DNA from: Candidatus Poribacteria bacterium
GTDB lineage: Bacteria > Poribacteria > WGA-4E > PCPOR2b
DNA length: 64,000 nt
Assembly (NCBI GenBank): GCA_965208325.1
Contig: OZ242326.1
Location: 3,616,001 to 3,680,000 of the forward strand
Direction: 5' to 3'
Shown: positions 38,769 to 64,000 of the stretch, piece after piece
Position numbering within the stretch: the stretch's first letter is position 1
Layout of the letters: every line of letters begins with the position of its first letter
Made by a program: the position numbers and the translations under genes
The notes under the pieces: generated by a model
Told to the model about the DNA's origin: nothing
What the model saw: only the letters and a program-made list of their open reading frames with translations
The model's database searches: none

Positions 38769-41132
38769 ATGACTAGACCAATTCGGCTTTTGACTTTTTT
38801 GTTGCTGGTCTGCGCCGCGGGCGGGGTATACCTGTTGCCGTGCGGGTATGCCGAACCGGACGAGCCGGTTTTCAGCCTGAGTTGCCGCGACGCCGGATTA
38901 CGGGACGTATTGGGCAATCTAGCGAACCAGAAGGGTGTGAACCTTGCGGGACTGGATGTGATAGCGCCAAGCGTGACGCTCACGGCGAACCTGAGCGTCG
39001 TTCCGCTAGAATCGGGGTTGCGTGCGTTGTTGGAGCCTCGCGGTTTTACGCTTGAGAAGCGCGGCGGCATCTACTTTATCGGTCAGGACGCACAAATGGC
39101 TCGCGGTCTATCGTTGAGCGTTTCCGAAGGCCGCCTGACGGTTGACGCTAACCGTGTTGATGTGAATGATGTGGTTCGTGCTTTGGCGTCGTCGGGTATT
39201 AGCATATCGAGCGCATCCAACTTGACTGGGCAGGTGACTGCGCATCTGCGTTCTGAACCGTTGGAATCCGCGTTGCGTGTGTTGTTGGCGGACTTCACAC
39301 TTCAGGATTTAGAAGGCATCTACCGTGTCGAACCACCGCGTAATCTGCGGGAATCGGGATTGACGATGCTGATTACGGACGGCGTTGTTTCGATTGCGGC
39401 TGAAGGCGCGAGTTTGAGTTTGCTGCTGTCGGAGTTGGCTGCGCGTACAAGAATTAACCTGTCCGTTGTCGGGGACATGAAGCGCCAAGTTACGTTGCGT
39501 CTGGATAACCGAACCGTTTCGGAACTATTAGCGGACTTGGCAGTGATGACGGGCTTTACGTATCGTCAAGTCGATGATTTGCACTTCTTTGGCAAACCTG
39601 AAATAAAACCCGATGTAGTGAATCCGCTGATTGAGCGCAAGACTATCTGGTTAAAGCACCTTGTGGCGGACACGGTTCTCAACCTGCTGCCGATTCACAT
39701 CCCCAAGCAAAATGTCGTGGTGTCGGCGTCGCACAACACGGTGACAGTTGTGGGGTCACGGCAGTTGGTAAGCGAGGCGGAACAGTTTTTGTTAGAACTG
39801 GACGCCGAGGACGATGCGATACGCGGTCGAGAGGGAAACGGCGCCATAGCGGTCGAAGTGGACAGGGAGACCGGACGGCTGAGCGTAGACCTATTGAATG
39901 CGCCTCGTTTCGATGCGGTGCGCGAGCTTTCGGTCGCGGCGGGTTTTGATATGGTGTTTTTGGACGGTTCGGATTTGCAGCCGGAGCCGTCAAGTTCATC
40001 GGGGTCTACGATTCAGCGTAGCGTTCCCGACCCGCCGCCGAGTCCATCGACCGAAACAGTTACGTTGCGCCAAATGGGTGCGACGTTGGATTCGGTCCTG
40101 TCGGCGCTGTTTTTGGGGTCAAGCTACGGGTACACATGGGCGGAATCAAATCCGCACGCCAAACAAATGCTGGTTATCGGCTCTGAAATGAAAGCGCCTT
40201 TTTCGGAATCTGCGTTGATTGCGCTGAATTATCTAGCAGTTCCGAAAGCCATGGAATTGTTGCCTGCGCCTCTGAAAGTGAACATCAGCCCGCTTACGGA
40301 CAGGAGCGCGTTGCTAGTGACGGGTTCGGCTGCGCGGATTGACGCATTTCGGAAATATCTGGAAACGATTGACGTGCCTCAACCGCAGGCGATGATTCAG
40401 CTTTACCTCTTGGAATTGACGAAGGGCAACCGCGATGAATTAGGGCTTACCGTCGGCGCGGTAGACAACCGGACGTCAATTGAAATCAAGGATGGATTTG
40501 GGTTAAGTTTTGACTCGATGGCGAGTGTGCCTGCGGCGTTTAGCGCGAAACTGGCTGCGTTAGTTGAACAGAACCGTGGCAAGGTGCTCGCAAATCCGTC
40601 GCTGGCTGTGGTGAATGGCGAGAAGGCATCGATTGATATTGGCGGGAAGCATCTGTTCGAGACTAACAACCCAATCTACCCGACGATTGGTGTTGGCGAG
40701 CCTTCGACAACCCCGGCGGTTGCAACTTATGGCGGGTATGCGCCTTCAATCTATCGCAGCCTGTTCACGATTGAAACCGGGATTCTGCTGGAATTGACTC
40801 CCGTTATCGGCGCGTCCGGAGAAGTCACGATGGCAATCCAACTTGCTATTCGGAACGCAGACCAGGTATCTCGGGAAGAATCGTCGTTGGATCAACGCCT
40901 GATACAGACGACAATCAGCGTCGCCGATCGGGGTGTTGTCGTGATTGGCGGGTTGCTCCAGGAGAAGGAGATACAAGAAGTTAGCCGTGTTCCAATTCTG
41001 AGTCGAATTCCGTTGTTGGGCGGGCTCCTGTTTACGTCAAAGGAGACCACGGTTGAGCAGACGGAGTTAATTGTGATTATCCAACCGAAGGTGATTAAAA
41101 GCGATGAATCGCATCTGTTTACAGATAACTGA
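38769..41132 (+). CDS. Outer-membrane secretin (GspD/PilQ family) with multiple STN/N0-like domains
   Basis: Signal peptide from ATG 38769 (GGAG RBS); IDVPQPQAMI, VLANPSLAVVNGEKASI, ETGILLELTP, VIGGLL, VPILSRIPLLGGLLF, TELIVIIQPKVI. Confidence 0.92.
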   Translation: MTRPIRLLTFLLLVCAAGGVYLLPCGYAEPDEPVFSLSCRDAGLRDVLGNLANQKGVNLAGLDVIAPSVTLTANLSVVPLESGLRALLEPRGFTLEKRGGIYFIGQDAQMARGLSLSVSEGRLTVDANRVDVNDVVRALASSGISISSASNLTGQVTAHLRSEPLESALRVLLADFTLQDLEGIYRVEPPRNLRESGLTMLITDGVVSIAAEGASLSLLLSELAARTRINLSVVGDMKRQVTLRLDNRTVSELLADLAVMTGFTYRQVDDLHFFGKPEIKPDVVNPLIERKTIWLKHLVADTVLNLLPIHIPKQNVVVSASHNTVTVVGSRQLVSEAEQFLLELDAEDDAIRGREGNGAIAVEVDRETGRLSVDLLNAPRFDAVRELSVAAGFDMVFLDGSDLQPEPSSSSGSTIQRSVPDPPPSPSTETVTLRQMGATLDSVLSALFLGSSYGYTWAESNPHAKQMLVIGSEMKAPFSESALIALNYLAVPKAMELLPAPLKVNISPLTDRSALLVTGSAARIDAFRKYLETIDVPQPQAMIQLYLLELTKGNRDELGLTVGAVDNRTSIEIKDGFGLSFDSMASVPAAFSAKLAALVEQNRGKVLANPSLAVVNGEKASIDIGGKHLFETNNPIYPTIGVGEPSTTPAVATYGGYAPSIYRSLFTIETGILLELTPVIGASGEVTMAIQLAIRNADQVSREESSLDQRLIQTTISVADRGVVVIGGLLQEKEIQEVSRVPILSRIPLLGGLLFTSKETTVEQTELIVIIQPKVIKSDESHLFTDN

Positions 41133-62900: not shown

Positions 62901-64000
62901 CTACGACAAGTCCGGCAACCGGATGGCGCAGATTAGCAGCATTGACGGCACGACCGCCTACACTGTTGCGCCTGATAGCAACCAGTTGACCTACCGATCG
63001 CTTGTTCCGGAAGATAGCGATTTTTCGACGATGAACTACACCTACGACGCCGAGGGGAAGTTGACGCAACGAAGTGAAGGCAACGATTCAGACGCATTGA
63101 GCTACGGGTTCGGCTCGAGGTTGACGCAGATACAAAAGACACGCGGCGGCACACTGCAACAGACGATAAGCTACGCCTACGACGGCGGCGGGAAGCGCGT
63201 GAAGGTGACCGATAGCGGTGGGACGCGCTACTTCCTCTACGACGGCTTGATGCCGCTGTTGGAACTGGACGCAAACAAGAAAATCGCCGCCTCCTACCTC
63301 TATGGCGCGGACGGTGTCGTCTACCGCCGCAAACACAATGCCGCCGCGCACTGGCACTTCGACGAAGGCACGGGCACTGTCTCGCACGATGTGGACGGTC
63401 AGCACAACGGAACGCTTGGCGATGGGGATACGAATAAGGCGCCGGCTTGGAGTACCGAAGACGGCAGCAGTCTTCAATTCGATGGTACCAACGATGTCCT
63501 CAAAGTACGCGACAGTGATGCCTTAGACCTAGTGGGCAATACGCTGACCATAAGCTGCCGGGTGAAGCGGGCCGCGGCGGCGAGCGGATATCTGCTCAAG
63601 AAATCGGACGCCTCAAACGGGTATCGGCTCTGGATAACTAGTAGCGGTGCGGTTCAGTTTGACTTACTGTTCAGCGGAACTACTAAGACCGTCACCAGCG
63701 CCACGACCATCCCGTTAAACACATGGGCGCATGTGTCGGTTCGCTACAACGGGAGTGATATGAACATCTTCATCAACGGAACCAAAGAGTCTGCATCGAC
63801 CGCAGCAACGGGTTCTTTAGTGGCGACAACTGCGGCGTTGTGGATGGGATATTACGATGGCGCCAGTCATCACCTCAACGGTTATCTCAACGAGGTGTCA
63901 ATCTATGACCGTGCGCTAACCGACACTGAGATGACTGATTTAGCGAACAATCGGGTGGGACGTTATGAATACCACTACACGAACGCGCTGGGCAGTAACA
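59917..64000 (+). CDS. Rhs/YD-repeat polymorphic toxin 3 (partial, runs off window end)
   Basis: Not in the ORF track; AAGGAG RBS, ATG 59917 MTRSICALVVLLVLVFSSTVVG|QFGDPVPRYPQE; same frame at window end RYEYHYTNALGSN; LamG-like insert ~63334-63960. Confidence 0.92.
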   Translation, partial: MTRSICALVVLLVLVFSSTVVGQFGDPVPRYPQEMDGPVNMKNRSLYFSATDLAIPGRGIGIEFTRYYNSAGIHGSTNGTSYIGPKWNHNYQWEIRFGGSRSGYTWVWRDGQSFYERSPYTVTIITGSGTKQSFTASGSRLDQSGWESRATFSPKTGVRASLKFEQFGTKWAYIYTTRSGIRYKFETVDNLTSTKQVLTEISDPNGNRVKLHYEAQPETPARSHRYPRLAAVEDSLGRILKFSYDHTVDDDALPRFITKIEFGLGTSTALTTVYNTVEYGYTRYRRHPYYSTSGHIDCLTAMAHQLGTDDPRGSEVRTQYEYVSSDSHGYRDFGSLAAVVSPLGYRTEYHIYERKVSSVRARDVADYNSDEGTVLHERLYSTPYTNSMTVYSKNPVDRTDNTRRRHNRYRVNTGQITEKYYGWRLPDYFSWRWSYANTNVTSASHYDNNDSQLINGTYYTRKSYFYRIYYEGADSTHNRQMGNATKWEQYHSSYRTPSDAARKWEADYETKYNRPIWQIDPMGHRTEFSYDDKGNLTEQRSKADTGIQPHAVGRDIITTHQYDAYGNRIKTTFMPDTTQEKVVETVYDSIKHTYPIEVKTTVTEGGADHIIKTKSEWDTDRGLKTADIDAQGRRTEYAYWQDGALKFTRRVVDDLYSIPTYDKNGRVTQTQVRQSNWQTGRLIAQTKTEYDAMGRVTRAHSFNNDDWTTPYATTESMYDVFGDLSQTKDPRGLLTTYTRDFLGRVTKQTLPGGDWVETRYNSIDQITKAWTSQTGSETSPAVSNTYDNLNRISQVSYSTGETVSYTYDRGDNVLTQATNDGSETYTYTFTHDQLNRIITQDNSLLGYKTFYEYDDASMRTRMSIQPSSGGTKVYDATYTYDEANRLLSVRDALAGKTASYGYFDIGALKTATNPNGITAHRTLDNLNRLDTVQYMKTATEVLSSLDYAYDVKSNVIELERDDTGAGGANKIFSFCYDNLSRLITANYGDGIVMYTYDKSGNRMAQISSIDGTTAYTVAPDSNQLTYRSLVPEDSDFSTMNYTYDAEGKLTQRSEGNDSDALSYGFGSRLTQIQKTRGGTLQQTISYAYDGGGKRVKVTDSGGTRYFLYDGLMPLLELDANKKIAASYLYGADGVVYRRKHNAAAHWHFDEGTGTVSHDVDGQHNGTLGDGDTNKAPAWSTEDGSSLQFDGTNDVLKVRDSDALDLVGNTLTISCRVKRAAAASGYLLKKSDASNGYRLWITSSGAVQFDLLFSGTTKTVTSATTIPLNTWAHVSVRYNGSDMNIFINGTKESASTAATGSLVATTAALWMGYYDGASHHLNGYLNEVSIYDRALTDTEMTDLANNRVGRYEYHYTNALGSN

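Follow-up and report, generated by a model that had tools for sequence, protein, structure and literature searches.

A variable genomic island of sponge-associated Poribacteria joins an accessory secretin/PilM-PilN/PilO-PilP set to an array of Sec-leader Rhs toxins

We analysed a stretch of 64,000 nucleotides (the window) from the genome of a Candidatus Poribacteria bacterium (contig OZ242326.1), here called G000, which is a single contig of 4.71 Mb and whose DNA is also present in sponge metagenome runs; the window corresponds to G000:C1:3616001-3680000. From position 38769 onwards it carries a variable genomic island of sponge-associated Poribacteria that joins two units. The first comes from the type IV pilus/type II secretion system (T2SS) family and is an accessory, envelope-spanning set (hereafter the module) made up of a secretin, a PilM-PilN fusion and a probable PilO-PilP(GspC-HR) fusion. 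The other is a polymorphic Rhs array with a partner protein resembling carbohydrate-binding modules (CBM-like), three Rhs toxins with Sec-type leaders, immunity genes and spare cassettes. Judged from sequence comparisons, the linkage from secretin to Rhs is genuine and old, and it has been passed on or transferred as one block more than once. The module is plausibly, if not demonstrably, the exit of the Rhs toxins, and we put the probability that it takes part in their export or display at about 0.4.

The secretin gene (38769..41132, +) lies in an open reading frame (ORF) that opens at 38685, and its likely start is 38769 (MTRPIRLL...). Its product has the domains that define the secretin superfamily PF00263, namely a C-terminal secretin domain (Pfam Secretin, E-value (E) 4.7e-32, 111 bits, cut-off 27.5), a Secretin_N domain (2.4e-9, 37.7 bits, cut-off 28.2) and an N0/STN domain (2.1e-7, 31 bits, cut-off 28.4), with three STN and two Secretin_N domains found in the orthologues. 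It stays under the NCBIfam cut-offs for both GspD (TIGR02517, 142 vs 351 bits) and PilQ (TIGR02515, 131 vs 284 bits). The next gene (41104..42513, +) encodes a protein of 469 aa with a cytoplasmic actin-like PilM domain (about residues 1-270), an NLLxP linker motif (276-280), which we take to be the PilM-binding motif, a transmembrane helix and a periplasmic PilN domain; N276, L277, L278 and P280 are invariant in the alignment. A profile of 21 homologues reached PilM of M. xanthus (3jc8) at E 2.2e-29, PilM of P. aeruginosa at 5e-17 and a third chain at 4e-16 (5eox and 2ych are among the matches), whereas GspL was reached at only 0.53. The Pfam PilN domain scores 1.1e-4 and 22.6 bits in the window (cut-off 22.8), 23.4 bits in G029 and 32.4 bits in G007, and Pfam finds both PilM_2 and PilN in the orthologues. 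All of this points to a PilM-PilN fusion (PilMN). The family is tiny, with 30 of 1.84 billion cluster representatives matching at E<=0.001; a profile search of genome contigs with an alignment of six PilMN sequences returned five loci, all of Poribacteria type, and is uninformative on other phyla.

The third module gene (42513..43436, +) encodes 307 aa, and its sequence matches remain under the cut-off: Pfam T2SSC at 8.2e-4 and 19.7 bits (cut-off 27), the GspC chain 7oio_A at 0.028 and PilO at 0.27. Its AlphaFold2 model, with a low mean pLDDT of 56 overall and 75-79 in the C-domain, shows a coiled coil and an alpha-beta core between an N-terminal transmembrane helix and a C-terminal beta domain, and the top Foldseek matches are the HR domain of GspC (3oss_C, E 1.7e-3, TMt 0.81), PilO (3jc8_Oa) and PilP. 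The two halves are separate genes in G007, where one is Pfam PilO at 4.3e-7. Hence the three identities proposed in an earlier note on this DNA, a secretin followed by PilMN-like and PilOP-like proteins, are supported by Pfam, profile and structure matches, the third with less certainty from its sequence. The gene overlaps that it read as translational coupling are also present: the ATG of pilMN at 41104 lies inside the secretin gene, which stops at 41130-41132, giving an overlap of 29 nt, and pilMN and pilOP meet in a TAATG junction at 42511-42515 with AAGGAG 8 nt upstream. These overlaps are not retained in the relatives, where gaps of 130-1300 nt separate the genes at the level of ORFs. Promoter and terminator counts in a scan of 38000-54000 were not above those of shuffled sequence.

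The three toxins share one architecture. Rhs1 (44726..49648, +), Rhs2 (53920..58881, +; the ORF opens at 53758 and the leader from MTRSICALV places the start at about 53920) and Rhs3 (59917..64000, +; ORF from 59878, start about 59917) all possess DUF6531, YD/RHS repeats (57-93 bits), a Laminin_G_3 insert and an Rhs core (Rhs_assc_core, 73 bits in Rhs1, cut-off 32.5). In the translations, dissimilar C-terminal domains come after a motif of the DPxGL type (DPFGL in Rhs1); the paralogues can be aligned only to about residue 1445-1510, and Rhs2 is 73% identical to Rhs1 up to about Rhs1 residue 1480. The repeats, a core running to DPxGL, a variable C-terminal domain and a downstream gene whose immunity function is deduced from its position characterise them as polymorphic Rhs toxins. 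The C-terminal domain of Rhs1 has an HExxH motif and a weak match to Peptidase_M91 (E 0.013). Rhs1 is followed by a beta-propeller-like protein with a signal peptide (49668..50708, +; weak matches to DUF6242 and beta-propellers) and Rhs2 by a HEAT-repeat protein (58897..59877, +; Pfam HEAT_2 6.6e-31), both of which are candidate immunity proteins by position. A 68% identical copy of the HEAT protein trails an orphan Rhs2-like C-terminal domain at G000 2352042-2353735. Rhs3 runs past the window to genome position 3680911 as an ORF of 1677 aa and is followed by HEAT-like, immunity-like genes, beyond which lies a 166-aa Rhs N-terminal fragment (G000 3683849-3684349). This fragment comprises a leader and the DUF6531 region, is 63% identical to Rhs1 and represents the remnant of a fourth Rhs gene. 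The Laminin_G_3 insert, a concanavalin-like lectin domain, sits just before the Rhs core (Rhs1 residues 1189-1333, window 48290-48724) and at the same place in Rhs2 and Rhs3 (E 1e-22 to 1e-27), and may be exposed at the surface and serve in binding.

Read by eye, the Rhs leaders consist of a basic n-region, a hydrophobic core of 12-15 residues and then VVA, VES or VVG, directly before the conserved mature end QFGDPVPR.PQE.DG, and this junction is kept across paralogues and genomes. They look like Sec-type signal peptides for signal peptidase I, and no lipobox or anchor was seen in them by eye. Pfam gave no match at E<=0.01 to PAAR, VgrG/Phage_GPD, SpvB/TcB or WXG in the three Rhs proteins or their neighbours, and the T9SS (type IX secretion system) domain Por_Secre_tail is absent from the Rhs proteins as well. 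Genome-wide, PAAR_motif and VipB/TssC are missing from G000, VgrG and Hcp having been left out of this genome-wide search; the absence of TcB-type domains (Pfam, E<=0.01) likewise concerns the Rhs proteins and their neighbours, with no genome-wide search for TcA. The earlier note had listed a secretin, pilMN, pilOP, a CBM-like gene and three Rhs genes on one strand, and this content and order stand with small corrections of start positions. Its observation that the Rhs proteins lack PAAR, VgrG, TcB and WXG domains is likewise borne out, while the cleavable signal peptides it proposed stand as Sec-type leaders with a conserved junction, judged by eye.

Between pilOP and Rhs1 lies the gene for the CBM-like secreted protein of 373 aa (43484..44605, +). 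Its ORF extends from 43403; according to an alignment of 23 homologues the protein really begins at M28 (43484), which leaves no overlap with pilOP. The family comprises 44 proteins, nearly all of them unnamed, and the window protein has no Pfam or NCBIfam match. Its layout is a signal peptide, a Gly-rich linker, a jelly-roll domain and a helical bundle; the AlphaFold2 model (pLDDT 73) shows a jelly roll of the CBM4/16/22 type with the helical bundle, and Foldseek matched it to CBM4/16/22 and to hyaluronan- or porphyran-binding modules at E 1e-6 to 1e-5. The gene is the constant upstream partner of the Rhs family at seven loci (two in G000 and one each in G035, G024, G028, G051 and G007). A scan of metagenome contigs with the CBM-like alignment gave one contig of 2.7 kb with no readable neighbours. 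One homologue, P0041 (48% identical), is labelled by its source as coming from a gammaproteobacterial metagenome-assembled genome, which may be due to exchange between sponge symbionts or to faulty binning. Moreover, the intergenic stretch between cbm and Rhs1 (44603-44702) differs in contigs from two other sponge metagenome runs, with 73 letters for 98 in contig X5 and 130 letters for 90 in contig X6; this is strain-level variation in the putative promoter region of Rhs1.

The evidence for coupling of the two units comes from a census of 176 species genomes of the phylum. PilMN was found in eight, all of which also have the module-type secretin; the latter is intact in G000, G035, G024, G028, G032, G029, G007 and G008, G036 and G115 carry partial copies at the ends of contigs, and in G031 (a pseudogene) and G055 (a fragment) it is degraded. 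A search with the first 500 residues of the Rhs family (E<=1e-10) likewise found it in 8/176 genomes (G000, G035, G024, G028, G007, G051, G048 and G054). The full order secretin-pilMN-pilOP-cbm-Rhs on one strand is present in four genomes, G000, G035, G024 and G028, which represent three diverged lineages. Between these lineages the secretins are 71-77% identical (71-73% when G000 is compared with G035, G024 and G028), PilMN 52-57% and PilOP 52-61%, while G024 and G028 share 93%, 92% and 78% identity, respectively. Contigs from sponge metagenomes of other studies bridge 38700-46354, from the secretin as far as Rhs. The three units of G007 (secretin, pilMN and cbm-Rhs) lie on three different contigs and thus represent co-occurrence without linkage.

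Two relics preserve the same arrangement. The island of G035 is flanked by two genes whose orthologues in G000, together with two further upstream flank genes, are 88-98% identical, and the same site in G000 holds locus A (2352012-2369192), which is orthologous to the intact G035 island. All that is left of the module there is a 237-nt secretin remnant directly before cbm-Rhs, the stretches matching positions 6789-7869 and 8105-13593 of the G035 locus (L081) being absent. The island in the window (locus B) is therefore a second, more divergent copy in G000. Locus A further contains cbm, an Rhs gene of 1639 aa and an orphan toxin cassette, along with lipoprotein-like genes and immunity genes of the HEAT type. 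In G033 and G034 the site is empty between the same two flanking genes, which makes the island an all-or-none indel within the genus. The second relic was found in G055 (L077, G055:C5 5743-9190), where secretin residues ~10-350 abut Rhs residues 776-1563; the junction is the scar of a deletion that took out the remaining module, cbm and the 5' half of the Rhs gene. Thus, the conservation of gene order that the earlier note proposed to check for extends to three diverged lineages and two relics (locus A and G055).

The module can drive nothing on its own. Pfam detects no ATPase, platform protein or (pseudo)pilin in the island, which is not a complete T2SS or type IV pilus machine, so no motor-driven work is expected of it unless the T2SS motor is shared; contrary to the earlier note, it cannot by itself drive Rhs export. 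G000 has one other secretin, of 1004 aa, which is the last gene of a complete T2SS cluster (1.2595-1.2742 Mb) 2.4 Mb from the island. This cluster also encodes GspE, F, G, I, J and K, a PilM_2-like protein of 584 aa and two further genes, and it contains the sole T2SSE ATPase, the sole GspF and all four prepilin (N_methyl) motifs of the genome (the motifs at 1.2595-1.2645 Mb). With no pilin motif outside this cluster and one ATPase, the reading of the island secretin as PilQ from a split pilus or competence locus falls away, a check that the earlier note had suggested. A predicted complex of GspE residues 1-175 and PilMN residues 1-272 reached an ipSAE of 0.75 vs 0.00 for the best of three controls, passing a mark reached by 116/157 solved complexes and 2/215 mismatched pairs, with a contact agreement of at least 53% and a partner pLDDT of at least 81. 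The model supports docking of the PilM-like domain of the module on the GspE of the T2SS cluster. Solved structures of GspE-GspL complexes exist, and a PilM-like paralogue is encoded in the T2SS cluster itself; this result therefore speaks for a family likeness, not for binding by this particular copy.

A second secretin set without a motor is nothing unusual in these bacteria. Most of the Poribacteria checked carry another one, with a GspD-like secretin of ~806 aa preceded by a GspC-like gene and accompanied by small genes (e.g. L091 in G025, L092 in G053 and L093 in G033); in G053 and G033 this set adjoins a giant TPR/alpha-2-macroglobulin protein of ~2650 aa. A single GspE was found in G000 and in all five other Poribacteria genomes checked, so such a second set is normal in the phylum with or without Rhs. 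Replacement of the ~806-aa set by the island at the same chromosomal site was considered and dismissed, as the flanks of the G025 set were not found near the islands of G024 or G028.

The individual parts have clear relatives in known machines. Like PilMNOPQ of the type IVa pilus (M. xanthus, 3jc8), the module combines PilM-, PilN-, PilO- and PilP-like parts with a secretin in the same functional sequence, and PilM is the best profile match. Unlike in that system, the genes are fused pairwise (M-N and O-P), the secretin comes first in the operon and does not reach the PilQ cut-off, and G000 has no pilin, PilB, PilC or PilT outside the T2SS cluster. Likeness to GspD, GspC, GspL and GspM of the T2SS lies in the C-domain of PilOP, which resembles the GspC HR that binds the N0 domain of the secretin, and in the predicted docking of PilM on GspE; GspL, which binds GspE, in effect amounts to a fusion of the PilM-PilN kind. 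However, the N-terminal domain of PilMN is nearer to PilM (2e-29) than to GspL (0.53), the secretin stays under the GspD cut-off, and G000 already possesses a complete T2SS with its own secretin. On the toxin side, WapA of Bacillus subtilis is a Sec-exported Rhs/YD toxin of a monoderm, with which the island proteins share a Sec-type leader, the YD shell and, paired with an immunity gene, a polymorphic toxin at the C-terminus. WapA has no outer-membrane step to take, whereas G000 encodes secretins, a T2SS and PorV-like proteins. The island toxins also differ from Rhs proteins delivered by a type VI secretion system (T6SS), having no PAAR themselves and residing in a genome devoid of PAAR_motif and VipB/TssC.

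For diderms there is a published precedent for Sec-type export followed by passage through a secretin. The activity of the RHS bacteriocin Bcn-A of X. perforans is present in the supernatant and is lost in a mutant of the secretin gene xpsD (PMC7259588). Like the island proteins, Bcn-A is a diderm's large RHS/YD toxin accompanied by accessory and immunity genes, and it uses an ordinary T2SS, with no secretin or alignment genes described there as adjoining the toxin. The island differs in its separate, motor-less secretin/PilMN/PilOP set genetically linked to the toxins. Further, RHS toxins with signal peptides have been classed as 'T2SS/Sec-dependent' (Zhang et al. 2012, PMC3482391, Table 1). 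As that table presents the class, the signal peptide is its sole N-terminal trafficking feature and RHS is among its repeats, which agrees with the Sec-type leaders and RHS repeats of the island proteins; its signature neighbour gene is given as '-', whereas the secretin module is a recurrent neighbour in the island. In searches of the literature on Rhs secretion and on Poribacteria secretins, supplements aside, we found no description of a secretin gene linked to rhs genes. The remark of the earlier note that it did not recognise the export route as described therefore applies to this linkage and not to the route as a whole, given the secretin-dependent RHS activity (PMC7259588) and the T2SS/Sec class (PMC3482391) as these sources report them. 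What would be new here is a dedicated motor-less secretin/PilMN/PilOP set genetically coupled to toxins.

How might the two units work together? We infer that the Rhs proteins would pass the inner membrane via Sec and adopt their fold in the periplasm, while the accessory set would dock via its PilM-like domain on the sole GspE/GspF/pseudopilin motor of the cell, encoded in the T2SS cluster at 1.26 Mb. Docking would yield a second, cargo-linked exit gate through which the island cargo, i.e. the Rhs and perhaps also the CBM-like protein, would preferentially leave or be displayed. The need for an export route is supported by the lack of TssC and PAAR in G000 and by a Sec-type leader as the only trafficking feature of the Rhs proteins. 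Module genes that are dispersed elsewhere are assembled beside the toxins, which fits selection for a joint function, and the simplest such function would be an extra cargo-linked gate that borrows the T2SS motor. Rather doubtful is the more far-reaching version, in which a portable exit cassette (secretin, PilM-PilN and PilO-PilP) moves with the Rhs genes, plugs into the sole T2SS motor and pseudopilus of its host and serves as a second gate specialised for Rhs cocoons of ~180 kDa.

Several findings weigh against a role of the module in Rhs export, and many of them are expected if the units are neighbours merely by hitch-hiking. The module would then be a mobile replacement of the phylum's second secretin set for general secretion or envelope functions, with the Rhs proteins using Sec and then the main T2SS or any secretin, a serious possibility without being a probable one. 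Rhs genes occur without the module: G051 and G048, both single-contig genomes of 97% and 99% completeness, have intact Sec-leader Rhs (1611 and 1658 aa, in G051 along with a CBM-like gene) and neither the module secretin nor PilMN; G054, with a broken Rhs copy, also lacks the module. No module relics were detected at E<=1 upstream of the module-less Rhs of G051, G048, G054 and G007. The reverse is found in G029, G036, G008 and G032, which have module genes and no Rhs family; the module secretin stands alone among unrelated genes in G029, G007, G008 and G032, and in G029 and G007 pilMN-pilO(P) is alone at another place. Locus A keeps cbm-Rhs after loss of the module, which would fit action in trans and dispensability equally well. 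The ~806-aa set, present in the listed other genomes of genus g9 and the sampled ones of genus g7, is missing from G000, G035, G024 and G028, so the module may simply replace a general-purpose system, in line with a phylum in which second motor-less sets are common irrespective of Rhs. The use of the ordinary Xps T2SS by Bcn-A, as reported in PMC7259588, points in the same direction. Moreover, the three lineages may descend from one mobile block and would then not count as three independent origins of the linkage, and the complex model may pass through likeness to GspE-GspL complexes or paralogy with the T2SS PilM-like protein. A folded Rhs cocoon of ~180 kDa would also be about as wide as, or wider than, secretin channels are usually said to be.

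Hitch-hiking leaves other observations unaccounted for. Even with PilMN diverged by 43-48% the linkage has survived, and its relics show an unchanged order. Island-clade secretins (at least 56% identical) were not found next to any other cargo, and module genes dispersed elsewhere are gathered in one block with toxins, as selection for joint transfer predicts; G007, where the units co-occur unlinked, also speaks against it. Genus g1 lost the ~806-aa set irrespective of the module (G034 has neither, G033 a broken copy), which leaves a simple replacement story incomplete. It is improbable, in our estimate, that the Rhs proteins are released by no secretin at all and remain periplasmic or outer-membrane-associated after Sec, reaching targets via vesicles, lysis or contact, with the CBM-like protein as a carbohydrate-binding helper and the module irrelevant. 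The constant partner of Rhs at seven loci is indeed the CBM-like protein and not the module, the shell has its own LamG lectin-like domain, and its size would argue against passage. On the other hand, such release would leave the conserved secretin linkage unexplained, the Rhs leaders show no lipobox or anchor, and secretin-dependent RHS release has a precedent in the genetics reported in PMC7259588. Least credible by far is the reading of the module as non-functional and decaying, left over from a pilus or secretion system after loss of its ATPase and pilins, as the lack of ATPase, platform and pilins at the locus and the decay found in G031 (pseudogene), G055 (fragment) and locus A (relic) might suggest: three intact ORFs persist in four genomes despite 23-48% protein divergence, NLLxP and many other residues are invariant, the genes in the window are compact and overlapping with a Shine-Dalgarno sequence, and the PilM-like domain is predicted to dock on GspE.

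Export through the module thus has to be worded with restraint. The earlier note had the Rhs toxins leave via the adjacent dedicated secretin; leaders and linkage argue for this, whereas intact Rhs genes are kept without the module in G051 and G048, as is cbm-Rhs at locus A, and the module also occurs without Rhs. It had itself named Rhs homologues in genomes lacking the secretin as evidence against its proposal, and G051 and G048 (with a broken copy in G054) are such genomes. These counter-examples limit the claim to a gate that facilitates export and is not required for it, helpful and yet dispensable because other secretin systems of the phylum can evidently substitute.

Positions 1-35000 of the window hold nuo, PFOR, PDH, a histidine kinase and a sigma-54 activator, all of them housekeeping genes. 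Upstream of the secretin, a secreted protein of 906 aa (35416-38136) bears a C-terminal sorting domain of the T9SS type (Por_Secre_tail/FlgD_ig); about 50 places in the genome match its C-terminal part, and G000 has two PorV-like genes. A T9SS-like export route probably exists in G000 and is not used by the Rhs proteins. Five small genes lie between the Rhs1 immunity candidate and Rhs2 (50807..53879, +): the Big_5-like p263, the paralogous lipoprotein-like p176 and p198, p207 and p187, four of which have no Pfam match. Homologues of p263, p176 and p198 are found in locus A, those of p176 and p198 in G051, and those of p207 and p187 in the arrays of G024 and G028, showing that these small genes travel with Rhs cassettes. 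The pair p176 and p198 (51617-52733) shares ~29% identity and belongs to no known family.

In diderms, little is documented on how Rhs toxins with no more than a signal peptide cross the outer membrane; the sources found here are the genetics of Bcn-A and a class from comparative genomics. The recurrent linkage of an Rhs array to a secretin and alignment set of its own provides a concrete candidate for a cargo-linked secretin gate, where one T2SS motor would possibly serve two secretin sets. This also bears on competition among sponge symbionts, as the T6SS markers TssC and PAAR are absent from G000 and yet several Rhs toxins and spare cassettes are present. If the portable cassette were to prove true, the specificity of a secretion gate would be horizontally exchangeable along with its cargo.

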